Positions 4,111 to 63,645 of a DNA stretch of 64,000 nucleotides are shown here, one piece after another. Below the pieces are notes generated by a model that ran no database searches, was not told the origin of the DNA, and saw nothing but the letters and a program-made list of their open reading frames with translations. The translations under genes and the position numbers were made by a program. The number at the start of each line of letters is the position of its first letter. The stretch's first letter is position 1. Source of the stretch: a virus. Its lineage: Duplodnaviria > Caudoviricetes. The stretch is taken from positions 1 through 64,000 of the IMG/VR virus record IMGVR_UViG_3300046786_000888. The stretch is one strand, 5' to 3'.

Positions 4111-4896
4111 GTGTCTAATAGTACCAGACTCACGGTCAACGGTTTACGTCACTACCGTTGCGAAGGTGTAGATGTGCCTTTGCCTTCGGTGACATCTGTT
4201 TTATCCGCCACGCAGAGCGCCGAAACACAGCGTAAGCTAGCGCATTGGAATGCGTTAAATCCAGGGGTTGCTGACGCTGCAGCAGCTCGTGGGAGCTGGA
4301 TCCACGAGGCGGTAGAGAACCACATCAGGGGGATTACAGTAAACCCCAGAGAAGATCTTAAGCCTTATTGGAAGGACGTTCCAGAGAAAGTTGACGAATT
4401 GATTGGCAGCGGACGCGTCCTATGGAGTGAAAAACCCTACAACCAACCCGGTTGGTCCCGTTACGTCGGGGATGATGGAGTCGGACGCATACACTACTAC
4501 GACGCTCCAACAGGTCACGGCTGGGCGGGCTGCTGCGACATCATTTATAAAGACAGCAACGGCGAAATCATCCTGGGCGACTTCAAAACGTCCGTAGGGC
4601 CATACAGCGCGAAGTTCCCCTCAAGCAAAGCTGATATCCCAGAGAACTTAAAGAAAGCCCTAATCAGTGGAGTCTTTAAATTCAAGAAAACGAAACTCCA
4701 GCTTGCTGCCTATACAATCGCAGCCGAAAAATGCTTGGGTATTAAAATATCGAAAACCCAGATAATTGTATCTACTCCTATACCTGAATATAGCGTTCAG
4801 GTATTTAGTTTCGGAGAAAAAGATATAGAAAAAGACAAAGAAAACTGGTGGCAAATAGTGCGAAAATACTACGACACTCACGACGTAACAGGGTGA
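4111..4896 (+). CDS. PD-(D/E)XK exonuclease (Cas4/MGME1-like phage type)
   Basis: LPSVTSVLS, RGSWIHEAVE, AGCCDII, GDFKTS and QLAAY motifs. Confidence 0.85.
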   Translation: MSNSTRLTVNGLRHYRCEGVDVPLPSVTSVLSATQSAETQRKLAHWNALNPGVADAAAARGSWIHEAVENHIRGITVNPREDLKPYWKDVPEKVDELIGSGRVLWSEKPYNQPGWSRYVGDDGVGRIHYYDAPTGHGWAGCCDIIYKDSNGEIILGDFKTSVGPYSAKFPSSKADIPENLKKALISGVFKFKKTKLQLAAYTIAAEKCLGIKISKTQIIVSTPIPEYSVQVFSFGEKDIEKDKENWWQIVRKYYDTHDVTG

Positions 4897-8427: not shown

Positions 8428-8435
8428 AATGGCTA

Positions 8436-8452
8436 GTAGTTGATCGGACTAA
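8436..8452 (-). repeat. Junction site S1 (gene orientation TTAGT-CCGATCA-ACTAC)
   Basis: 5-bp arms with 7-bp spacer; contains the TAG stop of 8449..9183. Confidence 0.6.
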
Positions 8453-9183
8453 TAGGGCAGTGGCAGGGCACGGACAGATAGCCAGTGTGTTGGCTGCTCA
8501 TTTAGAGCGCGTTCTGGTACAGCGTCATCTTCATGCGCCCAGTAGCCATAGGTGTCGCTAGGTACTTCTGGATACCACCACCAACACTTGCCTTCTATAT
8601 CGCAATCCCCCGGCCCCGGCAGGCGCTCGCTCACCGGCACCGGCTGCGGTGGGCTCAGGCGTTCCAGTAAGTCGGCGGCGCGAAGGCGCTCATCGGAAGT
8701 CAGGTGCCCACCTGCGCGCAATTCACTGACTTCTTCACGCAGCAATCGCGTAAGCTCCGCCACCTCGCCAGCGGCAGGGGAACGTGTAAGCCCGGCTTTC
8801 AAGTTGCCCGAACTATCTGGAGATCCCGGATGGTTGCCCCAGCGTGCGAGAACGGCGCGGGCGTACTCGGCAGCATCTCCGACTGACGTCATCCCCATAT
8901 CATCAGCCAACATAATGAGCTGTCGACTGGTTGGTTCCTTCGGCTCGGGCTCGGTTACCCATAACTCGCCACAGTCGCAGTGTTCAGGACCTTGCTGACA
9001 TGGGCCACCGCATTCTGCTATTTGCGACGGGCTGTAGATGCAGCGGTGTGGGGGCTCGGGCTCGGCCAGGGCGGCGCGGGCGCGGTCGATGTCAGCGCGG
9101 ATTGTCTCCTTTAGTTTGAAGGGCCAGTCGCACAACTCAAGGTCATCAACCAGCTCAGCGCACAGTTGTTTGTAGTCAGTCAT
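8449..9183 (-). CDS. Modular accessory phage protein
   Basis: Modules TDYKQLCAEL, RARAALAEPEP, LARWGNHPGSPDSS and PVPVSERLPGPGDCDIEGKCWW (DUF551-like end). Confidence 0.7.
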   Translation of the reverse strand: MTDYKQLCAELVDDLELCDWPFKLKETIRADIDRARAALAEPEPPHRCIYSPSQIAECGGPCQQGPEHCDCGELWVTEPEPKEPTSRQLIMLADDMGMTSVGDAAEYARAVLARWGNHPGSPDSSGNLKAGLTRSPAAGEVAELTRLLREEVSELRAGGHLTSDERLRAADLLERLSPPQPVPVSERLPGPGDCDIEGKCWWWYPEVPSDTYGYWAHEDDAVPERALNEQPTHWLSVRALPLPY

Positions 9184-9188
9184 GGTGG

Positions 9189-9205
9189 TTAGTGAGGTGG
9201 ACTAA
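9189..9205 (-). repeat. Junction site S2 (TTAGT-CCACCTC-ACTAA, perfect inverted arms)
   Basis: Contains the TAG stop of 9202..9546; next ATG 5 nt downstream. Confidence 0.75.
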
Positions 9206-9546
9206 GAGGTTGCGTAAGCAAACAAGTTGTTTACAACATCTTCAGATGTGTGGCCATTCCACTCCAGTGCTTTTTCTGCTACCTGCATTCCGGTTTTTGC
9301 AGCAGTGTCCCACAGGCTTGCGGGGAGGTGGTAACTGATTTGGCCTCCCGTCGGAAGTTCCCCGATAACGATAAACCATTCGTAGCTACCAAAACACAAT
9401 TTGCCGTCAGAATGGCATCGGCTCATCACGAAGCATTCAGGCATGGTGCTTACGAAAGCAAGAAACAGTGCGTGGCGGTGTTCGTACAGTTCAGCAAAGG
9501 TGTGGTAGCCGTCGCTGATTTGTGATCTGTCTTCCATTGGGGTCAT
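9202..9546 (-). CDS. Conserved phage protein (SDGYHTF...WxGH motif family)
   Basis: QISDGYHTFAELYEHRHALF, QISYHLP and WNGHT motifs. Confidence 0.7.
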   Translation of the reverse strand: MTPMEDRSQISDGYHTFAELYEHRHALFLAFVSTMPECFVMSRCHSDGKLCFGSYEWFIVIGELPTGGQISYHLPASLWDTAAKTGMQVAEKALEWNGHTSEDVVNNLFAYATS

Positions 9547-9562
9547 TAGTGATGTTGCCTAA
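9546..9562 (-). repeat. Junction site S3 (TTAGG-CAACATC-ACTAA)
   Basis: Contains the TAG stop of 9559..9906 and overlaps the ATG at 9546. Confidence 0.7.
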
Positions 9563-9906
9563 GAGGGCAGGGATTCAATAGCTCGACGAAGATCCGCGAT
9601 GATCTCAGGTAGGTAATGGCCATCGCGCTCCATGACCTCCAAGTGCTTCAGGTTCAGCTCCTTCAAGCTCGGCGGCTTGGGGCGGCGGGCGGCGCGAAGT
9701 TTGGTGCCATGCCCCCAGCCAGTACCAAGTTCACAATTCAGCCACTCACAGCACGCCTCCAGCTCCTGGTCAGCACCCCAATGGGCGGCTTGCATACATA
9801 GATGCTGCTCACGGTTCATGTGTTTTACTTTTGCTTTGTACCATTCATCCGACCATTGCAGAACAAGGCCTTCAGAAGGCGGAGTAATTGGGTGTTCTTG
9901 GGTCAT
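9559..9906 (-). CDS. HPITPP-family accessory protein (paralog 1)
   Basis: MTQEHPITPP...WGADQELEACCEWL...RAARRPKPPSLKE, shared with 60602..60946 and 61145..61537. Confidence 0.75.
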   Translation of the reverse strand: MTQEHPITPPSEGLVLQWSDEWYKAKVKHMNREQHLCMQAAHWGADQELEACCEWLNCELGTGWGHGTKLRAARRPKPPSLKELNLKHLEVMERDGHYLPEIIADLRRAIESLPS

Positions 9907-9955
9907 TGTTGAAACTTGTGATGTGTGTGTATCTAATGTAATAAAGCTATGTAAT

Positions 9956-10663
9956 TCAGAGGATTTCTAAGTTCTCAATGACCCGCCAACCTTCAACAGC
10001 AGGATTGTCAGACGCAAGCACAGCTTTCACTGTAGTAGGCACGTAAGCGGACAAAATACGTCCAATATCGTGCGCAATATACTTGTGCTCCTTTTGGGTA
10101 CCATTAGCGCCGCGCAGACCAACGTAAAAAATCCAATCCCTTAAAGTGCCCTGCATGTGTAACCGCGTAGGTGTACACATCGGAAGAATATTTCGAGCGC
10201 ACTCGCGAGCCACGCCGGACTCTAACAACGTATGGTACAGATCTTCAATCTCAAGAAAGACTTCTTTAACACGCTTTTTTAAAACTTCTTTAACAGTCTC
10301 GTCGGCAAACTCAAGACTATTTTGCCGATCTTTGAAATCCTGAGCCCGAAGTTCAAAGTCCCAACAGCCGTCCCAGGCGTCATCAAGAATTTTATCAGGA
10401 TTGCAGTAACGTTGCGACAATTCTTGATAATGAAAAGCTCTATGACGAATAATTTGCGCCGAAATAGCGCGACTTGTTATAATCTCAAACGAAGCACAAA
10501 CCTGTTCGAAGATACTCCAATGCCCCTGATTAATACAAAAAGTCAGGAGCTTCTGGAACTCCGCTTTATCAGGATTTTTGGTGCTGGCTCGGGCGTGTCG
10601 GGCGACAACCTTCTCAGGGCTGTCGGTAATCCAATCGAGCTTAGCGTTGTGCAAACGATTCAC
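9956..10663 (-). CDS. thyX: Flavin-dependent thymidylate synthase
   Basis: HWSIFEQ; QIIRHRAFHYQELSQRY; ARNILP; RGANGTQKEH. Confidence 0.9.
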   Translation of the reverse strand: MNRLHNAKLDWITDSPEKVVARHARASTKNPDKAEFQKLLTFCINQGHWSIFEQVCASFEIITSRAISAQIIRHRAFHYQELSQRYCNPDKILDDAWDGCWDFELRAQDFKDRQNSLEFADETVKEVLKKRVKEVFLEIEDLYHTLLESGVARECARNILPMCTPTRLHMQGTLRDWIFYVGLRGANGTQKEHKYIAHDIGRILSAYVPTTVKAVLASDNPAVEGWRVIENLEIL

Positions 10664-12299: not shown

Positions 12300-12920
12300 A
12301 TGCCTAAGTATAGACCTATGCCGCCGCTTGAGCGGTTGAATGAGCTGTTTGAGGTTGTTGAGATTCCAGAGGATAAATTTGGCAAGTGGTCTGGGTTGGT
12401 TTGGAAAGTGAGGCGAGGGGGTAAAGCGAACGCCGGGAGTGTGGCCGGGACGCCGAGCCCCCACTCAGGCGACCAAGATCGGGTTGATTGGAGGGTGAAG
12501 GTTGACGGTGCCGACTACCTTGCATCAAGAGTAATTTATTACATGGCTTATAGAGAAGATCCTGGTGATGTTACGGTTGATCATGAGGATCAAAATTGGT
12601 TGAATAACAACGCAGGGAATCTGAGGTTAGATGTTGATGGTGATATTCAAGATGTCAATAAACCGATGTACCGCAACAACACCAGCGGCGTGGTGGGGGT
12701 GTATTGGAACAAAGCAACGGGGAAGTGGCACGCGCAGGTGCGGTTTAAGGGTAAAGATATTTACCTCGGCCTTTATGCCTGCAAAATCGAAGCTGCCTGC
12801 GTGGTAAACGAGAAATGGATCAAACTCGGCTGGGATAAGCTAGGCCGCAAGCTTAACGACCTTAATCAGATCCGCTGCGACTGTGGCAAATGCTCAGCTA
12901 GCGATGATGGCCCAACCTGA
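12300..12920 (+). CDS. HNH homing endonuclease with AP2-like domain (antisense insertion)
   Basis: VTVDHEDQNWLNNNAGNLRL; NNTSGVVGVYWNKATGKWHAQV...YLG. Confidence 0.85.
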   Translation: MPKYRPMPPLERLNELFEVVEIPEDKFGKWSGLVWKVRRGGKANAGSVAGTPSPHSGDQDRVDWRVKVDGADYLASRVIYYMAYREDPGDVTVDHEDQNWLNNNAGNLRLDVDGDIQDVNKPMYRNNTSGVVGVYWNKATGKWHAQVRFKGKDIYLGLYACKIEAACVVNEKWIKLGWDKLGRKLNDLNQIRCDCGKCSASDDGPT

Positions 12921-14126
12921 AATCGGGCCTTCCACAAGCCACCGGGGGCCTAGGTTTTTTTTCGAGTATAATTTGTACCTACCGTCTGTGTTTATATAAC
13001 TACCCGATAGTAAATCTAAATTTCCATAAGGGTCGTGCACCCATAACTTACTTTTGTCAGCTGTAATCCCTACGCAGCACACCCAATGTCCGCCGCCGCT
13101 AGGATTCGACACAGGCCCCTTGTGCAAGATCCCCATAGGCACAGGGATGCCTTTCTTCAGCTGCGATTCCACTGTTTCCCAGTCAGCATTCTGCACGAAT
13201 TTGGCCTCTACACCAAAATGCCGAAGCGTCTGAATTTGTGCTGAAGCTTCTGTTGTATCACCGTATTTATAAACCTCTCCGATGTATTCGTCATCCCCCT
13301 CAATCGCATCAGGATCAAGGGTTGCTAAGAGCATCGCACAGCTCGATGAGAAACACGTGCGCAGCGGGTCCTTGGCGTTATCCCGCTGAGAGAAATACGG
13401 CACAACCAGTTTGACTTCACCGTCTAACTTCGGCGGTGTCTCCTGCGTCTCTGCGTCATTGATGATCTTGAAGTGCTCTGGCCAGAACCACCATTCAGCA
13501 TCCGGTCGAGCCTGGAGCACAACACGCTGATGGCGCTCGCCGGGATACTGACAGATCTCAGTCCACTCCCACGCGCTGCCCTTCGGTACGTAAAGCTTCT
13601 CCTCAGCCGCCAGCTCCGAACTTTGAACCGGACGCCGCTTCAGCCAGGTGTCCTGCTTGGCGTAGATCGATGCGGCCAACTGAGGGTGTTTAGGCTTCAG
13701 CAAGAATAAAGCCTGTTCAGCTTTCCGGCGCCTTGTTAACCCTTCGACAACTTGAGTGCCGACTTTGTTCCAACGAAGAAACTCAGATGCGACAACTGCA
13801 CGATCTGCATTGGCGTTCAACAGCCGAAGCAGCGTGCTTGTTTGGAGGGCGTTTAGACCAACGTTGTAGCTAAACGAAACCAGAGCGTCAAACTCGTTCT
13901 GGTTAATCGCAACCTTGACTAAGTTTGAGACGCCACGTTCGAACGCTGCCACGTCGGCACGCAGGAGATCCTCAGCTTCAGCCTTGGTGACCTCCATGCC
14001 GAGCTTGATATCTGGTCCGGTCGTGCCGTACCCGATCGTGGGCACGCCGCCAATGTCGGAATACGCCTTAAGGCGCAGACCCTCGAACTCCTTGATCAGG
14101 TCGAGACCTGTTTGAGATAGTCTCAC
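12894..14126 (-). CDS. Endolysin: GH24 lysozyme plus C39-like peptidase domain
   Basis: IKEFEGLRLKAYSDIGGVPTIGYG; GLTRRRKAEQALF; VPYFSQRDN...CFSSSCAM; GGHW; HDPYG. Confidence 0.85.
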   Translation of the reverse strand: MRLSQTGLDLIKEFEGLRLKAYSDIGGVPTIGYGTTGPDIKLGMEVTKAEAEDLLRADVAAFERGVSNLVKVAINQNEFDALVSFSYNVGLNALQTSTLLRLLNANADRAVVASEFLRWNKVGTQVVEGLTRRRKAEQALFLLKPKHPQLAASIYAKQDTWLKRRPVQSSELAAEEKLYVPKGSAWEWTEICQYPGERHQRVVLQARPDAEWWFWPEHFKIINDAETQETPPKLDGEVKLVVPYFSQRDNAKDPLRTCFSSSCAMLLATLDPDAIEGDDEYIGEVYKYGDTTEASAQIQTLRHFGVEAKFVQNADWETVESQLKKGIPVPMGILHKGPVSNPSGGGHWVCCVGITADKSKLWVHDPYGNLDLLSGSYINTDGRYKLYSKKNLGPRWLVEGPISGWAIIAS

Positions 14127-14563
14127 TGGTCAAGGATGTCGACGTCGATTCGATACTCAGCAGAGTTACGGCCTCCGGTTTGAATGTACATGTAGTACGT
14201 ACCGGACGTTCCAATTCGCTGGGTCGTTACCGAATTATTGCGACGGCTGAGCTTCGAAGGCTCGGCGGTCATAACTTCGCTACCTGCCGCGTCAAGTACG
14301 ATGACGCTACGCAGACTGTTTTGATCGCGGATATTAACTTGCATCACACCAGTTGCCGTGGCTTGGAACTGGTAATAGTCGCTAATTCCGTACTTGCCGT
14401 CAGCAGTATCGTACTTGGCGCTAGCGGTGTTAATCACCACGCCGCTAGCATTGACTGTCCGGCGCTGCTGGAAGTTAGTTGACTCGCTGCGCTGCTGGCC
14501 GGGGAACGCCACGCCCGAGGCCAGAACGGCGTTGAGTTCGAGGTCGCGGGTGAGTTCGGACAT
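14123..14563 (-). CDS. Beta-sandwich (PPC-like) protein, probably structural
   Basis: DYYQFQATATG...SGTYYMYI...YRIDV. Confidence 0.5.
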   Translation of the reverse strand: MSELTRDLELNAVLASGVAFPGQQRSESTNFQQRRTVNASGVVINTASAKYDTADGKYGISDYYQFQATATGVMQVNIRDQNSLRSVIVLDAAGSEVMTAEPSKLSRRNNSVTTQRIGTSGTYYMYIQTGGRNSAEYRIDVDILDQ

Positions 14564-21398: not shown

Positions 21399-22013
21399 CT
21401 ACCGCAGATTACGCGTCGCACAGCGGTCGCAATTACAGCTAACGCTTTCTAGGTTGGGAAAATCTCGACCTTTTTCGCCAAGATTATGCTTTGTATAAGA
21501 ATTATAAACAACGCGAGCTGCTTCAGCCTTACAAACAAAGGTACCTAAATGAGTTCGTTGACCCATGACGCACAAATAAGCCTGCCATTTCTTCAAACGT
21601 TTATGCCAACTAACATTGGGTACTCCACTGGTATTGCTACGTCTAGTGGATTGATTTGCAATCTGAATGTCTCCATTTATATCTAACCTAAGATTATAAA
21701 CGTTGTTATTGTAAGGATTTCTATCTATGTGGTCTATTTGAATGTCTTTAGGATCTTCATTATGCACCATGTAGTAAACAACACGTGCAACATAATAGCT
21801 TTTACCTTCAATCGTTATCTCCCAGTAAAATTTGTCTCTACGGCTGTGATGAACTTTTAAATTTCCCGCCACTTTTCCCGCTTTTGCGGTTCGACTGCGG
21901 TTAACCTTCCAAACCAACCCCGACCACTCTCCGTACTTATCCGGCGAAATCTCAACAATCTCCAGCAGTTCATTCAACCGCTCAAGCGGCGGCATGGGTT
22001 TATACTTAGGCAT
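21399..22013 (-). CDS. HNH homing endonuclease with AP2-like domain (paralog of 12300..12920)
   Basis: MPKYKPMPPLERLNEL; IDHIDRNPYNNNVYNLRL; NTSGVPNVSWHKRLKKWQA. Confidence 0.85.
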   Translation of the reverse strand: MPKYKPMPPLERLNELLEIVEISPDKYGEWSGLVWKVNRSRTAKAGKVAGNLKVHHSRRDKFYWEITIEGKSYYVARVVYYMVHNEDPKDIQIDHIDRNPYNNNVYNLRLDINGDIQIANQSTRRSNTSGVPNVSWHKRLKKWQAYLCVMGQRTHLGTFVCKAEAARVVYNSYTKHNLGEKGRDFPNLESVSCNCDRCATRNLR

Positions 22014-58264: not shown

Positions 58265-58346
58265 TACCCAGGACGAGACTCGAACTCGTACGGCATAACG
58301 CCTCAGCATTTTAAGTGCTGTGTGTCTACCATTCCACCACCTGGGC
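58265..58346 (-). tRNA. trnL: tRNA-Leu (anticodon UAA), CCA not encoded
   Basis: GCCCAGG/CCTGGGT acceptor stem; GGAATGGTAGAC D-arm; CAGCA-CTTAAAA-TGCTG anticodon arm; long variable arm; GTTCGAG T-loop. Confidence 0.93.
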
Positions 58347-58396: not shown

Positions 58397-58612
58397 TCAA
58401 CCGACTGTCAGTTTCCCTTCCCTAATCGCCTTCTTTACAAAATACAACTCTTTCTCCCGCACCAAATGCCAAGAACTTACATAGCATTTGTCGCCCCACA
58501 CCGACTCGATTACGACTGAGTCTCCGTCGTTGTGTGGACTAGAACGTACGTTCTCCGCTATTGCCACGTCAAAATCAAATTCACAGTTGTCTGCGTTTGT
58601 TTGTTCTGTCAT
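58397..58612 (-). CDS. Hypothetical protein
   Basis: 71-aa ORF from ATG 58612. Confidence 0.5.
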   Translation of the reverse strand: MTEQTNADNCEFDFDVAIAENVRSSPHNDGDSVVIESVWGDKCYVSSWHLVREKELYFVKKAIREGKLTVG

Positions 58613-58638
58613 ACTGCTACTACCCAAGTTCTACCCCC

Positions 58639-59256
58639 GTGCCGCACAGTCTAGACCCAAAGTACAACATTCACAATGACTGGGTGCGCAATCTGGTCTC
58701 CGCGTGGGAACTCGCTAGCTCGGAGCCTAAAGCACCAGAACTTCACTTTAATCCACTCGACCAACGAATTATCGTCGAAATTGGAATTTATGAGGGAGCC
58801 TCAACAGTTTGGTTCTCCGACAACCTGCTTGAGCACCCCGACAGCAGACTGATCAGTATCGACCCGTTCACCGGCTCTGAGGAGATGATCCGGGATCCCC
58901 AGCAGCATCCCACGCTGTCCCAGATCGAATTCACAGCCCGATCCAACGTCGCCAAGTCCAAGCACCCCGGCAAGGTCCGCATTGAAAAGGGCTGCTCGTG
59001 GGACCTCTACCCGAACCTCAAGGCCGAGTTCACACAAGGCATCGACATCCTGTACATCGACGGTGCGCACGATAGCACCTCCGTCATGCGCGACATCGCC
59101 CTGTATGCGCCCCATGTCAAATCAGGCGGTGCCATCCTATTCGACGACTACGGCGCTGAGTCTGTGCGCGTTTCCGTAGATGCCGCCGTCAACTCCTTCC
59201 TCTCCCTTGAAAAGGGTGTACTGTGTCCGTGGCAGCTCTGGACCGTCAAAAAGTGA
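58639..59256 (+). CDS. Class I SAM-dependent methyltransferase (Methyltransf_24-like)
   Basis: VEIGIYEGAS; SIDPF; ILYIDGAH; VKSGGAILFDDY; GTG at 58639 preferred. Confidence 0.85.
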   Translation: MPHSLDPKYNIHNDWVRNLVSAWELASSEPKAPELHFNPLDQRIIVEIGIYEGASTVWFSDNLLEHPDSRLISIDPFTGSEEMIRDPQQHPTLSQIEFTARSNVAKSKHPGKVRIEKGCSWDLYPNLKAEFTQGIDILYIDGAHDSTSVMRDIALYAPHVKSGGAILFDDYGAESVRVSVDAAVNSFLSLEKGVLCPWQLWTVKK

Positions 59257-59295
59257 CCGCCCAGACACTGCTTATCACATTCGCCATCTACACCC

Positions 59296-59559
59296 TTGCA
59301 GTCGTCCTATTCTTCTGGATTGCCTCAAGAATCGTACCCTGATCAACCCAACGTGCTTAAATTCGACACCAATTCTTACCTAGAAAAACGCGAAAACCGC
59401 CTACATGACATCATGAACGAATACCTAGACGACGAGGAGTTTGAAGCGCTCGCAGTCGCAATCCTCAGCCATCTCCAAGACGAATACAGACATCACTCCG
59501 AAAGATGCGGCAAACTCAAGCGCGTCTTTGAACTTCTTCAAACCGGAAACATCCAATGA
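59296..59559 (+). CDS. Hypothetical protein
   Basis: 87-aa ORF coupled to the next gene. Confidence 0.5.
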   Translation: MQSSYSSGLPQESYPDQPNVLKFDTNSYLEKRENRLHDIMNEYLDDEEFEALAVAILSHLQDEYRHHSERCGKLKRVFELLQTGNIQ

Positions 59560-60116
59560 CCACGCCAACCACAGCGGTTGAAATCAAGATCAACTACAGC
59601 GGCAGCGGTCGGTACGACGGACTCCCTGAGCACACATTCACCATGCTCATGGAAGACGCTACGGAGATCTCATCTGACTCGTGGTTTCTCCTGTTCGAGC
59701 GTGTTTTAGGTGCCCTGGGTTATTGCGAAACCGCCATCATGTCGGGCGCCTGCAGTCTCGCCTTCAACGACCTGCGGGACCCTGAGGAAATGAAAAAGGT
59801 CGCCACCGAACACGACCTACGACTCGTCGAAGACCCGGACCCAACCCCAAACATCAAACTCGAACCGACCAAAAACCCAGAGAAAAAACCCCTGTACGAA
59901 ATCGTTAGGGATGATTCAGATCTTTACGGATCTGTATGGACTCAAAAGCTAGCTAAGATGTTTAGGGTCATCGCCGACCAGATCCAAATTAGCGGTGAGG
60001 ACCAGTTCGGCGTTTACCAAACCACGGGGGAAGACATCCGCGAATGGTTGTACTGCGAAGCTCAAAAAGCAGAAAACTTCTGGGGCTCCGACCATGAATC
60101 CGAACATCAACCATAG
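59556..60116 (+). CDS. Hypothetical two-module accessory protein
   Basis: C-terminal FRVIADQI...IREWLYCEA module resembles 62970..63155. Confidence 0.6.
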   Translation: MTTPTTAVEIKINYSGSGRYDGLPEHTFTMLMEDATEISSDSWFLLFERVLGALGYCETAIMSGACSLAFNDLRDPEEMKKVATEHDLRLVEDPDPTPNIKLEPTKNPEKKPLYEIVRDDSDLYGSVWTQKLAKMFRVIADQIQISGEDQFGVYQTTGEDIREWLYCEAQKAENFWGSDHESEHQP

Positions 60117-60321
60117 AGCGTTTATCAAAAAGCTCGAACAAGCGTATCAATGCTGCCATTTCTGCGGCACGCTATACGGCAAACCTCGCGAAGGAGCTAG
60201 TACGATGTGGCATGGGACGTGTGATGTGTGCGGTGAATCCGCCACGGTCACCGAAACCCGCGACTACGGATACTTAGATAAAGGTATTCAAAGTATTAAA
60301 ACCAAACACAAACTCAAATGA
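60094..60321 (+). CDS. Zn-ribbon protein
   Basis: CHFCG...CDVCG..VTETRDYG. Confidence 0.65.
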   Translation: MNPNINHRAFIKKLEQAYQCCHFCGTLYGKPREGASTMWHGTCDVCGESATVTETRDYGYLDKGIQSIKTKHKLK

Positions 60322-60572
60322 CAGTCTGGAACTCAGTTGTTCCTTCGTTACGAACAAACCAGCGAAACATTCTGCGTTTAGTTGCACAGCACGAACAACG
60401 CAACCCTCACGAACCCTGTTACCTAGGAAAAGTTACAGCTTCCCGCAGAAACGTTTTCCTAAAAGCTGTTGCTTCTTTAGAAGATAAACAACTGATCGAT
60501 ATAGAGCGAACAGGTTCAAACTTTCAAGCGTGGAAAGTCAAATTGCTTATACCCATAGATACAGTTATTTAA
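60318..60572 (+). CDS. Winged-helix-like hypothetical protein
   Basis: LRTNQRNILR...KAVASLEDKQLIDIER. Confidence 0.5.
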   Translation: MTVWNSVVPSLRTNQRNILRLVAQHEQRNPHEPCYLGKVTASRRNVFLKAVASLEDKQLIDIERTGSNFQAWKVKLLIPIDTVI

Positions 60573-60578
60573 ACGTCA

Positions 60579-60595
60579 GTAGTCATTACCACTAA
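60579..60595 (+). repeat. Junction site S4 (GTAGT-CATTACC-ACTAA)
   Basis: Intergenic, 6 nt before the ATG at 60602. Confidence 0.7.
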
Positions 60596-60601
60596 TCACC
60601 C

Positions 60602-60946
60602 ATGACACAACAACATCCCATCACCCCACCACCTGAGCTATTTGCCGAGTGGTGGGAACAGGCAGACCAGTATCAAGACGATCCAAAGACATACTTCGAC
60701 TACGTTGCCACCGAAGCCGCCCAATGGGGTGCTGATCGGGAGTTGGAGGCGTGCTGTGAGTGGCTGCACTGGCAAAATCTAGCGACACACCCGGAGCTAA
60801 TCCCATCACTCCGCGCCGCTCGCCGCCCCAAGCCGCCGAGCTTGAAGGAGCAGGCGCTAGAACTGCTGGACAAAGCAGAAGACCCTAGATGGGATATCAA
60901 TGATTTCACTGTTGTCCGCCGCGCACTGGAGCAACTTGATGACTGA
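60602..60946 (+). CDS. HPITPP-family accessory protein (paralog 2)
   Basis: MTQQHPITPP...WGADRELEACCEWL...RAARRPKPPSLKEQAL. Confidence 0.75.
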   Translation: MTQQHPITPPPELFAEWWEQADQYQDDPKTYFDYVATEAAQWGADRELEACCEWLHWQNLATHPELIPSLRAARRPKPPSLKEQALELLDKAEDPRWDINDFTVVRRALEQLDD

Positions 60947-61148
60947 AAATCAAATCCATTTCATACGTGGTTGCTGTACAACAATCCTTATGTTTGCAGG
61001 GATTGGTTTATTGGCTGCAATCTTTTTGTCACCTGATGAACCTGTAGACAAATCAAAGTTTGAAGTCCTTGATCAGTACGAAGGTTGTTCAGTAATCCGT
61101 TACACTGATTCCACATCTCGCTGGCATTACTTCCTTAAGTGCTCATGA
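60939..61148 (+). CDS. Small membrane-anchored protein
   Basis: TM segment, then KFEVLDQYEGCSVIRYT...YFLKC. Confidence 0.6.
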   Translation: MTENQIHFIRGCCTTILMFAGIGLLAAIFLSPDEPVDKSKFEVLDQYEGCSVIRYTDSTSRWHYFLKCS

Positions 61149-61537
61149 CACAAGAACACCCCGTCACACCACCACCGGAGCTGGTAAAGCAATGGCGAGA
61201 AGCGCCCGAGTTTTCTGCGCTGTCTCCGTGTGTGATGGTGACAGTTACCACCACTAAGCTGCAAGACATCGCTACTCAAGCCGCCCGATGGGGCGCAGAC
61301 GCTGAGCTGGATGCGTGCTGTGAGTGGATCCCCAAGTGGACACCTTGGGACGCTGATCAACTCCGCGCCGACCGCCGCCCCAAGCCGCCGAGCTTGAAGG
61401 AGCAAGCGCTTGAGCAGTTGGATGGAATTGCAGCCGTATTCCAAATGTCTCACGGCGGCAACCTTGTATGTGACACCATCCGCCGCGCACTGGAGGCACT
61501 GCCCGACAGCATTGTCGTATTTCCTTCTCAGTGTTAA
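61145..61537 (+). CDS. HPITPP-family accessory protein (paralog 3)
   Basis: MTQEHPVTPP...WGADAELDACCEW...RADRRPKPPSLKEQAL. Confidence 0.75.
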   Translation: MTQEHPVTPPPELVKQWREAPEFSALSPCVMVTVTTTKLQDIATQAARWGADAELDACCEWIPKWTPWDADQLRADRRPKPPSLKEQALEQLDGIAAVFQMSHGGNLVCDTIRRALEALPDSIVVFPSQC

Positions 61538-61714
61538 AAGCATTAAAAAGCGGCAGGATGTCACCCCCACCGCTCTTGCAACTGGATCTCACTCCAGTCG
61601 CTTTGCTGCTTTCTGATCAGCCCCAGCACTGTAGCACACGGCAGGTATCAGCATGTATTACCTGAAAACAGGAATCAGCTAATACTTGCCCGCTTACGAC
61701 CCGTCTCAATTTCC

Positions 61715-61903
61715 ATGTCTGAACTTTCCTCCGCCGCGCAGGCGGTGATTACTGCCAGCAACTGTGCTGGGTCTCGAATCGTGCAGTTGCACATTGCCGC
61801 CGCCCTGCGAGCCGCTGCGGATGAGGTATGCCTCCGTTGGGCTGAGCTGAAACATCCTGCAGATGTTTTGAACACCATCGCTGACGAGCTTGAAGCCTCG
61901 TAG
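61715..61903 (+). CDS. Small accessory phage protein
   Basis: LSSAAQAV...IAAALRAAADEV...IADELE; its stop lies in site S5. Confidence 0.65.
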   Translation: MSELSSAAQAVITASNCAGSRIVQLHIAAALRAAADEVCLRWAELKHPADVLNTIADELEAS

Positions 61904-61916
61904 TCACCTTCACTCG
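61900..61916 (+). repeat. Junction site S5 (GTAGT-CACCTTC-ACTCG)
   Basis: Contains the TAG stop at 61901; next ATG at 61918. Confidence 0.6.
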
Positions 61917-61917
61917 T

Positions 61918-62058
61918 ATGCTTGACGACATAACTCCTGAGGAAAACGAGCGACGCTTTAGAGAGTGTATGGAACGGATCCACAACTTAACCCGCGAAGA
62001 ACTGGTAGAGGTGATGGGCGAAGAATGGCTTGAAGACTATCGCCGCAAGTTCTCTTAG
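61918..62058 (+). CDS. 46-aa mini-gene between S5 and S6
   Basis: MLDDITPEENERRFRECMERIHNLTREELVEVMGEEWLEDYRRKFS. Confidence 0.6.
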   Translation: MLDDITPEENERRFRECMERIHNLTREELVEVMGEEWLEDYRRKFS

Positions 62059-62071
62059 TCAAACTCACTAA
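62055..62071 (+). repeat. Junction site S6 (TTAGT-CAAACTC-ACTAA, perfect inverted arms)
   Basis: Contains the TAG stop at 62056; next ATG at 62077. Confidence 0.75.
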
Positions 62072-62076
62072 ACACT

Positions 62077-62232
62077 ATGACTGACGAACAAATCGACACA
62101 CTCCGAACACTCATTCAAGGCGAAATCGAAGCCGCTCTTCAAAATGAAAACGGCTACCGATTTGCATTCGAACAAGAGCAGACAAACGATCAAGGTTGGG
62201 AAACCTTCAAGAAGTTATTTAAGTCCCACTAA
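62077..62232 (+). CDS. 51-aa mini-gene between S6 and S7
   Basis: MTDEQIDTLRTLIQGEIEAALQNENG...WETFKKLFKSH. Confidence 0.6.
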   Translation: MTDEQIDTLRTLIQGEIEAALQNENGYRFAFEQEQTNDQGWETFKKLFKSH

Positions 62233-62245
62233 CCGCACTCACTAA
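62229..62245 (+). repeat. Junction site S7 (CTAAC-CGCACTC-ACTAA)
   Basis: Contains the TAA stop at 62230 and overlaps the ATG at 62245; same stop-to-ATG spacing as S3. Confidence 0.6.
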
Positions 62246-62472
62246 TGAAACTCCTCAGCGAAAATCTGGATTTTAATAGCTACCCAGATGCTCTCTGGGA
62301 ATTAGGATCACAGTTCATCATCTCCCGTGGCTACGAACAAGAAATAGACGTCGACTCCCTGATGGTACTTCTGTGGAAAATGCAGCAACGCATCGAAAAG
62401 CTGGAATCCCTGACCACGCCTGGATTCTGCGGCGAAACTTGCGACAAAACCTCTACACTCACAAACGAATGA
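62245..62472 (+). CDS. Hypothetical protein
   Basis: 75-aa ORF starting in S7. Confidence 0.55.
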   Translation: MKLLSENLDFNSYPDALWELGSQFIISRGYEQEIDVDSLMVLLWKMQQRIEKLESLTTPGFCGETCDKTSTLTNE

Positions 62473-62479
62473 GGTTGTT

Positions 62480-62734
62480 ATGACCGACCTTGAACTGATC
62501 GAAGCTGCAAACAGAGCCGGTCTGTGCGTGGCACAGTGCTGGGACTTAGACGAACTCTATAATCTCGATGCAGTAGAAAACACAGAGGACTGGATTCGCG
62601 ATTCGCAAACAGCGGACGAACGCGACGAAAAGGAACGCGTGGCAAACCACATCCGCCTACGCGCTCAAGAGAAAATGAACAATCTGCGTGAGTTTGCCGA
62701 ACTGATCCTGGCTGCGGAGCGAATTCGAAAATGA
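62480..62734 (+). CDS. Hypothetical protein
   Basis: GAGG RBS, 84 aa. Confidence 0.55.
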   Translation: MTDLELIEAANRAGLCVAQCWDLDELYNLDAVENTEDWIRDSQTADERDEKERVANHIRLRAQEKMNNLREFAELILAAERIRK

Positions 62735-62973
62735 CCACGCTGCGCCAACTACTGCAAGAACTCGTGGAGGAGATTGATAAAACGCCCCCTCCTTTAGCTC
62801 TCGGGTGTTTAGCCGATCGTTGCCGCGATTACCTGGACGATCACCCAGAACGTCAACCAACAGTAGAAGAACTGCACGCCCTGTGGGACGAAATATGGTC
62901 CGACCCAAACAGGATGCGTTACATGCACATAATATACGCTCAACAAATTTTAGAAAAATGGGGTAATAGATGA
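62731..62973 (+). CDS. Small modular accessory protein
   Basis: LRQLLQELVEE...PTVEEL...YAQQILEKWG echoes modules in 8449..9183. Confidence 0.6.
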   Translation: MTTLRQLLQELVEEIDKTPPPLALGCLADRCRDYLDDHPERQPTVEELHALWDEIWSDPNRMRYMHIIYAQQILEKWGNR

Positions 62974-63155
62974 GCCTAATACACAAATTACAAATTAATC
63001 CTGAACTGTATCCTTTATGTCTTACAAACGCCCAACTAAAGACTATCTTGGAGTTAATTGCCAACGAAGTCGAAGAACGTGGCGATAAACACCTAGACCT
63101 AGATCCAGGTGAAACATCAGATTGGTTACGCCAAGAAGCCGCATCTATCGACTAG
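62970..63155 (+). CDS. Small accessory protein
   Basis: ILELIANEVEERG...TSDWLRQEA. Confidence 0.55.
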   Translation: MSLIHKLQINPELYPLCLTNAQLKTILELIANEVEERGDKHLDLDPGETSDWLRQEAASID

Positions 63156-63188
63156 CGCAATCCAACAGCGTTTTTCTGAGGTGCCGTC

Positions 63189-63344
63189 ATCGACGACCAA
63201 ACTCGCCAGAACTGGCTCAAAGTAAAAACGGCTCTAGAAGCCGCCGGTAAAACTGAGTCACACTTTTACAAACGTGCAGTTGCTGTCTCAAAAGGACAAG
63301 AAGACCCTGGTTTTGAAAAATACACTGCTCAATTGTTCCAATGA
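63189..63344 (+). CDS. Cyanophage-type small protein with apparent ATC start
   Basis: (I)DDQTRQNWLKVKTALEAAGKTESHFYKRAVAV; GAGG 7 nt upstream; in-frame TGA at 63177. Confidence 0.5.
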   Translation: MDDQTRQNWLKVKTALEAAGKTESHFYKRAVAVSKGQEDPGFEKYTAQLFQ

Positions 63345-63517
63345 CGTACTACACCGGCGCAAATAAATAGATTTGTCAGAAAGTAACTCAAAAAAATGCC
63401 CGTGCGAACCCACGCAACGGCATCGGATTCTTTATCGCACTCCGAAGCCCTCTCCCCAAGGGCTTTAAACCACAAACGCCTCCAGCGAGGACGAGTTTTA
63501 GTCCGCATTTGCCGCAT
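63329..63517 (-). CDS. Cyanophage-type small membrane protein
   Basis: WRRLWFKALGERA...AWVRT...TNLFICAGVVRHWN. Confidence 0.7.
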   Translation of the reverse strand: MRQMRTKTRPRWRRLWFKALGERASECDKESDAVAWVRTGIFLSYFLTNLFICAGVVRHWNN

Positions 63518-63645
63518 CAGAAGCCCATTTTTTCTTGCAAAACTCTGAAAAGAGCGTTTTGCACTCTTCGTTAGTCACTCCGAGATAAACGGCAGCCTTC
63601 GGCACGTTCCATTTAGCGGTATAAAGCCGCTCAAACGGATCGATT

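Follow-up and report, generated by a model that had tools for sequence, protein, structure and literature searches.

Seven sites at the ends of small early genes

The window analysed here, a 64-kb stretch of DNA, comprises positions 1–64,000 of a virus record of 78,105 bp in IMG/VR (IMGVR_UViG_3300046786_000888), which is linear and estimated to be 97% complete. It contains seven copies, S1–S7, of a short polar element located at junctions between small early genes, three of them in a left array (8.4–12.2 kb, minus strand) and four in a right array (58.6–63.2 kb, plus strand); a third array of small early genes occupies 69–78 kb of the record (plus strand). The genome under study is labelled G000 throughout, and related genomes and loci are labelled G001, G002, G003 and G005 and by L-numbers. 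A preliminary description had read the sites as TTAGT-N7-ACTAA elements that separate mini-genes, and all seven are indeed present at the positions given below. Alignment of the seven in gene orientation (cCTcTTAGTCannnTCACTAA) reveals a common polar core, TAG-TC-N5-(C/A)ACT(A/T), that begins at the stop codon of the upstream gene in every site except S4. This stop, contained in the left arm, is TAG in S1, S2, S3, S5 and S6 and TAA in S7.

In the right array, S4 (60579–60595, plus strand; GTAGT-CATTACC-ACTAA with core TAGTC-ATTAC-CACTAA) lies 6 nucleotides (nt) 5' of the ATG of a gene of the phrog_32006 family (60602–60946, plus strand), and its TAG is not the stop of its upstream gene, which ends 7 nt before. 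S5 (61900–61916, plus strand; GTAGT-CACCTTC-ACTCG with core TAGTC-ACCTT-CACTCG) provides the TAG stop of a 62-amino-acid (62-aa) gene (61715–61903, plus strand), the conserved tail of which extends into the core, and the next ATG follows 1 nt past the right arm. S6 (62055–62071, plus strand; TTAGT-CAAACTC-ACTAA with core TAGTC-AAACT-CACTAA) likewise provides the TAG stop of a 46-aa gene, with the next ATG 5 nt past the right arm, while in S7 (62229–62245, plus strand; CTAAC-CGCACTC-ACTAA with the degenerate core TAACC-GCACT-CACTAA) a TAA stop ends a 51-aa gene and the ATG of a 75-aa open reading frame (ORF; 62245–62472, plus strand) overlaps the right arm. Because the stops lie in the left arms and the ATGs at or near the right arms, the 46-aa ORF (61918–62058, plus strand; conserved in G003) sits exactly between S5 and S6 and the 51-aa ORF (62077–62232, plus strand) exactly between S6 and S7, as the preliminary description had it. 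The differences between the 51-aa ORF and its G003 counterpart fall mostly (nine of 13) at third codon positions. On the bottom strand, positions 62040–62075 (opposite S6 and the flank upstream of it) contain a fair σ70-like pattern, TTGACT-N17-TAGTCT, directed antisense into the 46-aa gene; it is absent at the other sites and is therefore probably a chance occurrence.

The left-array sites are read on the minus strand. S3 (9546–9562; core TAGGC-AACAT-CACTAA) joins a phrog_32006 paralogue (9559–9906, minus strand), to a WDGH-domain gene (9202–9546, minus strand; PF25311, E = 1.7e-27), with the ATG overlapping the right arm, and S2 (9189–9205; core TAGTC-CACCT-CACTAA) joins the WDGH-domain gene to a 244-aa gene (8449–9183, minus strand). 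S1 (8436–8452; core TAGTC-CGATC-AACTAC) closes the left array, downstream of the 244-aa gene, and is followed by a terminator-like hairpin and no gene. The weak members of the set are S7, which matches eight of the 11 core positions and has a left arm unlike TTAGT, and S5, whose right arm is ACTCG.

Two expanded, virus-only families of helical proteins make up most of the arrays in relatives: phrog_32006 (cluster 0), of which G000 has a third copy at 61145–61537 (plus strand), and cluster 1, a family of 60–100 aa represented here by the 62-aa gene ahead of S5. Successive genes of these families in a run are joined by ATGA-type overlaps, and the core is found behind the last cluster-1 gene, before phrog_32006 genes and between unrelated small genes. 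Structure models of both families are confident and predict helical folds (predicted local distance difference test scores of 86 and 82); the models of phrog_32006 and cluster 1 had no match in the PDB, and their Atlas clusters are virus-only and 'hypothetical'.

Enrichment, recurrence and breakpoints of the core

The polar core is enriched well above chance. Within the window, TAGTC-N5-CACT has four matches where 0.41 are expected, and none of 100 shuffles reached four. A relaxed core stands right behind the stop at six of the 55 early-array gene ends in G000, while a null in which each junction's own bases were shuffled (20,000 trials) averaged 0.14 and never exceeded three; the excess is thus not a consequence of stop codons and C/A-rich leaders, and the enrichment at stop–start junctions that the preliminary description had proposed to examine is borne out. 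This applies to the polar core and not to the geometry first proposed, since the plain palindrome TTAGT-N7-ACTAA occurs 33 times at up to two mismatches versus 24 expected. TAG accounts for 16% of the stop codons of G000, yet five of the six sites with a stop in the left arm use it.

The same signal emerges from a set of relatives assembled without reference to the motif, namely 45 IMG/VR loci retrieved by a search seeded with the protein of the phrog_32006 gene behind S4, together with four whole related genomes (662 kb in all). Here the N5 spacing gives 25 matches and the N3, N4, N6 and N7 spacings give 1, 1, 2 and 0, respectively; 21 of the 25 end an ORF of at least 40 codons. Comparison of orthologous junction pairs (n = 58) gave a mismatch of 0–0.12 in the arms versus 0.09–0.21 in the spacer, the arms being more conserved than both the spacer and the adjoining third codon positions, which argues that something selects for TAGTC and CACT. 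The polar stop–start junction core is therefore confirmed, and it extends far beyond G000 as a boundary element of 14–17 nt, (A/T)(G/T)-TAG-TC-N5-(C/A)ACT(A/T), widespread in freshwater cyanophage-type viruses.

Scans of IMG/VR gave more than 200 further stretches carrying the core. With the downstream side held fixed (core plus phrog_32006 leader), 87 stretches were retrieved, in which the spacer is ATTAC in 54 of 67 distinct contexts and 46 different 12-mers precede the ATTAC core. With the upstream side held fixed (cluster-1 tail plus core), at least 120 stretches were retrieved; of their contexts, 36 have the spacer ACCTT, 14 have AGACC and 11 have CGATC. Behind the ACCTT core come 35 different downstream sequences, whose divergence starts immediately past ACT. 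Pooling yields 270 distinct junctions, at which 79 upstream classes are paired with 114 downstream classes in 177 combinations. Eight spacer variants account for 82% of the instances at these junctions, there being about ten recurrent spacer classes in all, and neither flank is alike in 1248 of 3566 pairs of junctions with identical cores. The ATTAC variant comes with a 22-nt leader shared by 60 phrog_32006 junctions and is preceded by 28 upstream classes, and the ACCTT variant connects nine upstream with 30 downstream classes. Junctions from cluster 1 to phrog_32006 carry the usual spacer of either partner, so that the joints lie to either side of the spacer, inside the arms.

Every spacer variant of G000 except that of S7 recurs elsewhere in another gene context: CGATC (S1) behind a different gene in L016, CACCT (S2) in other contexts in L104 and L233, AACAT (S3) in G005, L039 and L041, and AAACT (S6) in L165 behind another gene; the S7 variant was not found elsewhere. 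The core is present in phages with little other DNA in common (G000/G003, G002 and G001/G005), at one to seven sites per genome, all of them within accessory arrays, and the core with the phrog_32006 leader had no match in 185,579 cellular species genomes. The sites thus form a real polar family at stop–start junctions, in which identical cores of 14 nt connect dozens of different upstream genes with dozens of different downstream ones, and the scan of related phages that the preliminary description had proposed shows the sites to recur there. The core is co-oriented with the genes and ends 1–13 nt before the next start, although in about one core out of four no start codon follows closely; it is anchored to the upstream stop and not to the next start, and the cores without a nearby start do not suit a role in translation restart alone. 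At array ends in relatives (for example L007, L012, L041 and many of the upstream-fixed loci) a GC mini-hairpin such as GGCGGG-CAA-CCCGCC is often located right after the core.

Comparison with G003, which is syntenic with G000 at 80–94% identity, places several discontinuities at the sites, and sequence likeness often ends at the edge of the core. A block of 92% identity covering 61896–64458 begins at the left arm of S5, 5' of which the two genomes differ (2.7 versus 3.8 kb of unlike content), and G003 has an extra 74-aa Cys-rich gene between two cores where G000 has one core. The left array as a whole (8429–9961) is missing from G003, with likeness resuming 8 nt past S1. Inside the conserved block, S6 and S7 are the two densest clusters of differences: the S6 junction has AAACT in G000 and the widespread AGACC in G003 within surroundings that are ∼95% identical, which looks from the sequences like replacement by another core and not point mutation, and six of nine spacer bases differ at S7. 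Metagenome contigs from other samples diverge from G000 at 60579 (S4; run X7) and 61915 (S5; run X4), the commonest point of contig divergence being 60858, which was seen in all four runs. A block of ∼50 nt encoding RRPKPPSLKEQ, present at 60808–60858 and 61359–61410, is 92–98% identical among otherwise diverged phrog_32006 genes in many contigs. L203 and L199 differ by one tandem cluster-1 paralogue, an unequal exchange with its crossover in the conserved tail and core. No excision joints at S5–S7 were found in the assembled contigs, which drop rare forms.

Genome context and expression signals

The genome has a G+C content of 49.7% and ∼136 ORFs. The late genes, including terminase, portal, lysozyme-peptidase and β-helix fibre genes, occupy mainly the minus strand from 12.9 to 58 kb, and the small early genes, whose leaders are C/A-rich and G-poor, form the three arrays. 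A Kyanoviridae Gp96 domain, ThyX and matches to Synechococcus phages suggest that G000 is a freshwater cyanophage, and the metagenome runs containing the stretch are from fresh water and lakes. Public phage records yielded no close relative and only weak matches, of the phrog_32006 block to Synechococcus phages S-CBS2, S-H1 and S-RIP1.

Besides an exonuclease (phrog_298; 4111–4896), G000 carries two HNH-AP2 endonuclease copies and one small HNH gene. The two copies are paralogous ORFs of ∼205 aa at 12300–12920 (plus strand) and 21399–22013 (minus strand) with near-identical upstream sequences, the first of which has weak matches to HNH_3 and AP2 domains, both under the Pfam cut-off; they are probably free-standing homing endonucleases within the late region. 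Many minus-strand late genes (for example at 14563, 16344, 19595, 21369, 28045 and 40592) have TAGAAT, TATAAT, TATACT or TAGACT boxes ∼25–35 nt 5' of the gene, TAGAAT occurring seven times in upstream regions versus 0.6 expected, and these boxes look like −10 elements. An 850-aa ORF (genome 64468–67020, minus strand) is partly of low complexity, is conserved only in part in G003 and has no Pfam or PHROG match. The 342-nt segment 63156–63497 holds no credible gene, shows two differences from G003 and contains a hairpin at ∼63397–63425. Two small, perfect palindromes composed of TAGACT/AGTCTA units, CTAGACT-T-AGTCTAG and TAGTCT-ACC-AGACTA, are found in intergenic positions by divergent gene starts, at genome ∼64445 and ∼68911.

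Several expression-related readings of the core were considered. No promoter-like sites were found in the right array (58500–63600) or at the left-array sites, no terminator-like hairpin was located at any site and a scan with Rfam returned only the tRNA; the RNA runs, as assembled contigs, cover small shares of the stretch. A T7/T3-like promoter, suggested by the resemblance of CTCACTAA to the T3 promoter core, was rejected since its −12 to −8 specificity region would coincide with the variable spacer and CACT, at 1–13 nt from the ATG, is too near; the single-subunit RNA polymerase family PF00940 had no match in G000, in a search made without a positive control. Readthrough or fusion across the stop would be in frame at S2, S3, S6 and S7 of G000, but 127 junctions divide 31/44/52 among the three frames, so that no frame bias is apparent. 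No suppressor tRNA was found in G000, only tRNA-Leu(TAA) (58265–58346, minus strand) and tRNA-Met(CAT) (positions 13818–13891, plus strand, of L046, a locus that contains genome positions beyond 60 kb). Stop-hopping was dismissed because its UCU-UAG-UCA context is restricted to G000, relatives having CAG or GAG before the TAG. Shine–Dalgarno or rRNA pairing and boxes for NtcA, LexA and IHF gave no fit by inspection, and pairing of the left arm with the ATGACTGA start region, which reaches −4.6 kcal/mol at S6, was matched equally well by shuffles.

Interpretation and comparison with known systems

The core marks gene shuffling and is probably also a substrate of it. We see about an even chance that it is a conserved boundary where short-homology recombination swaps small early genes and selection then favours intact stop–restart junctions. 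Under this proposal, recombination between the cores of co-infecting phages over short homologies or microhomologies would allow single small early genes to be swapped, inserted or deleted, and the conserved tail of cluster 1 and the conserved leader of phrog_32006 would serve likewise. Annealing and exonuclease functions of the phages would probably help, candidates being the exonuclease of G000 and the RecT-like and YqaJ-like genes that adjoin the arrays in relatives (read from the sequences and not from a family scan). Selection would then retain those joints in which the stop stays intact and the restart leader is poor in G and free of structure, and a dedicated recombinase would not be required. 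The core itself may be kept by expression, by a bound factor or by an enzyme.

Several observations weigh against this proposal. The contiguous identity that cores offer, 14–17 nt or 5–8 nt if the joint lies in one arm, is shorter than the length for efficient RecT- or Red-type annealing; targeted breaks or a dedicated enzyme may be involved. No single-strand annealing protein was found in G000. The preliminary description had asked whether rearrangements among relatives break exactly at the sites; such breaks are seen at S5 and near S1 against G003 and at S4 and S5 in contigs, but most of the G000/G003 and contig breakpoints lie elsewhere, chiefly at conserved blocks within phrog_32006 genes, and exchange is thus not confined to the cores. 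Only two of ∼40 ends of G000/G003 blocks coincide with sites, no more than in a gene-junction null, and a strict search with near-identical flanks gave one clean filled/empty pair only (L203/L199). Retrieval of both fixed-side sets from IMG/VR kept one flank and the two arms constant, so that their free side and spacer alone are unbiased. The conservation of the arms, finally, calls for a function, which may be a termination–restart context or the binding of a factor.

The core might instead be the binding site of a factor, either on DNA (an operator or roadblock of a stoperator-like kind) or on RNA (a translational operator or endoribonuclease site), the mosaic boundaries then being a by-product of its position at gene ends. 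Two conserved boxes at strict spacing, 10 bp from centre to centre and separated by a less conserved spacer, would suit such a site, as would its fixed orientation relative to transcription (the 21 of 25 matches that end an ORF), its stoperator-like layout after stops and before starts within a promoter-free 5-kb array, and its tight link to two expanded helical families from which the factor might come. No DNA-binding or RNA-binding fold or family was found among the proteins neighbouring the sites, however, and the sites number only one to seven per genome and are restricted to accessory arrays instead of being distributed genome-wide. Identical 5-nt spacers also recur in unrelated contexts far above the rate of a free spacer, S6 and S7, which have non-family flanks, drift or are swapped between close relatives, and RNA structure was not detected, all of which leads us to view a factor-binding role as possible but doubtful. 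A passive origin, in which the core is the old intergenic spacer of an ancestral cluster-1/phrog_32006 pair that has been carried along without a role, would account for the association of the commonest variants with one family each (ATTAC with the phrog_32006 leader; ACCTT, AGACC and CGATC with the cluster-1 tail) and for the G000 sites with non-family flanks being the most degenerate. We nevertheless regard it as very improbable: 28 upstream classes have their stop precisely at the TAG of the ATTAC core, which implies precise joints and not random breaks, cores also join pairs that include neither family (S6, S7 and L016), and both the strict spacing and the better preservation of the arms relative to the spacer and the adjoining third codon positions are at odds with mere descent.

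The cassette idea of the preliminary description calls for a dedicated site-specific recombination or nuclease system of lytic freshwater cyanophages, encoded by the phage or its host, whose enzyme would cut the 15-bp core TAGTC-N5-CACT or exchange strands there, with gene plus core as the cassette and the spacer variants as compatibility classes; if it were true, single small early genes, possibly with host-takeover or anti-defence functions, would move between unrelated phage backbones. The sharp joints at both edges of the core and the hundreds of partner combinations are in keeping with such a system, as is the extra gene of G003 bracketed by two cores, and the identity at many joints is below the usual length for homologous recombination. 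Discrete spacer classes would suit a need for identical overlap between partner sites, but joints also pair the spacer of one partner with the flank of the other. The search for a recombinase, carried from the window to the whole 97%-complete 78-kb genome, gave no match to PF00589 at E ≤ 1 (control genomes did match) and none to PF00239 (resolvase) or PF01797 (Y1 transposase). Nor did the arm geometry of a tyrosine recombinase hold up: the arms measure 4–5 bp versus 9–13 bp in known core-type sites, the symmetric part is limited to (T)AGT/ACT(A), three or four bases, with C and C at the inner positions of 144 of 163 junctions, and covariation is absent, since ten TAA and nine TAGC variants show no compensating change and the flanking pair shows no association. 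The suggested single-strand hairpin fares no better, as DNA and RNA hairpins at the sites are unstable (∼−0.5 kcal/mol, with values from 0 to −0.8 kcal/mol) and mostly no better than those of shuffles. Exchange also occurs at conserved blocks inside genes that have no core, and excision joints were not seen in the contigs, which cannot show rare forms. Cassette-like boundaries, with the same core joining many gene pairs, are therefore what stands of the idea, and the tyrosine-recombinase and hairpin mechanism is not. An enzyme stays alive as an explanation because the shared identity is so short, and it is a minority view, unlikely in our judgement, because no such enzyme was found, the arms are only weakly symmetric and exchange also takes place at blocks without a core.

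No observation points to a recombinase system of the integron kind. In integrons the attC site is 57–141 nt long and folds into an imperfect single-strand hairpin from its R''-L''/L'-R' boxes. The arrays of G000 and its relatives are similar to integrons in that promoterless small genes in one orientation are each followed by a site, in which the stop codon may lie, and in that sites bound cassettes, as with the 46-aa and 51-aa genes, the same class of site being found with many genes. They differ in lacking IntI, in the length of the core (14–17 nt), in having no stable folded bottom strand with extrahelical bases, in a core unrelated to GTTRRRY and in a lytic-type phage setting. Core-type sites such as lox, FRT, dif and att, in which two inverted arms of ∼9–13 bp surround a 6–8-bp overlap, are likewise different in structure. 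The PeSL (promoter-early stem-loop) cassettes of T4-type phages carry a strong σ70-like promoter and a stem-loop terminator, and mini-circles have been shown for them (Arbiol et al. 2010, PMC2839356; Comeau et al. 2014, PMC4122927). Like PeSLs, the core is a short repeated element between small non-essential ORFs in hyperplastic regions, it bounds insertions, deletions and replacements between close relatives (S5 and S1 against G003, S4 and S5 in contigs, L203/L199) and recombination between elements is taken to drive modular shuffling. The proposed mode of action of the core resembles that of PeSLs and of the lambdoid linkers, but the core is not itself a PeSL, since it contains neither promoter nor terminator; it is much smaller, at 14–17 nt, starts with a stop codon and lies within a polycistronic array.

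The stoperators of cluster A mycobacteriophages, according to Brown et al. in 1997, reportedly occupy short intergenic spaces. They lie predominantly in one orientation relative to transcription (PMC6550527), and the core resembles them as a short asymmetric site in one orientation in the short spaces at gene ends within operons (PMC6550527, PMC9283540). Unlike stoperators, of which ∼20–30 are spread over the whole genome in temperate phages whose repressor is known, the core has one to seven sites, all in accessory arrays, that coincide with reassortment. If a factor or an enzyme does read the core, it would represent a new regulatory or recombination system.

A further precedent for recombination at conserved boundaries comes from lambdoid phages, for which conserved boundary sequences are said to act as points of homologous exchange, in Botstein's modular theory and in the account of HK620 by Clark et al. 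in 2001. In both cases short conserved boundary sequences are proposed as exchange points between unlike neighbours. The lambdoid linkers are few and are disputed, since random illegitimate recombination followed by selection may explain them, whereas here a single core of fixed spacing is found at 270 distinct junctions on several backbones. By marking exchanged small early genes, the core helps in delimiting cassettes in phage genomes from metagenomes, and its recurrent 'alleles' can be tracked. Compact, fixed in spacing and present at hundreds of distinct joints in uncultured freshwater phages, it provides a defined test case for the long-standing question of whether mosaicism arises at specific short linkers, as proposed for the lambdoid phages, or from random illegitimate joins filtered by selection.

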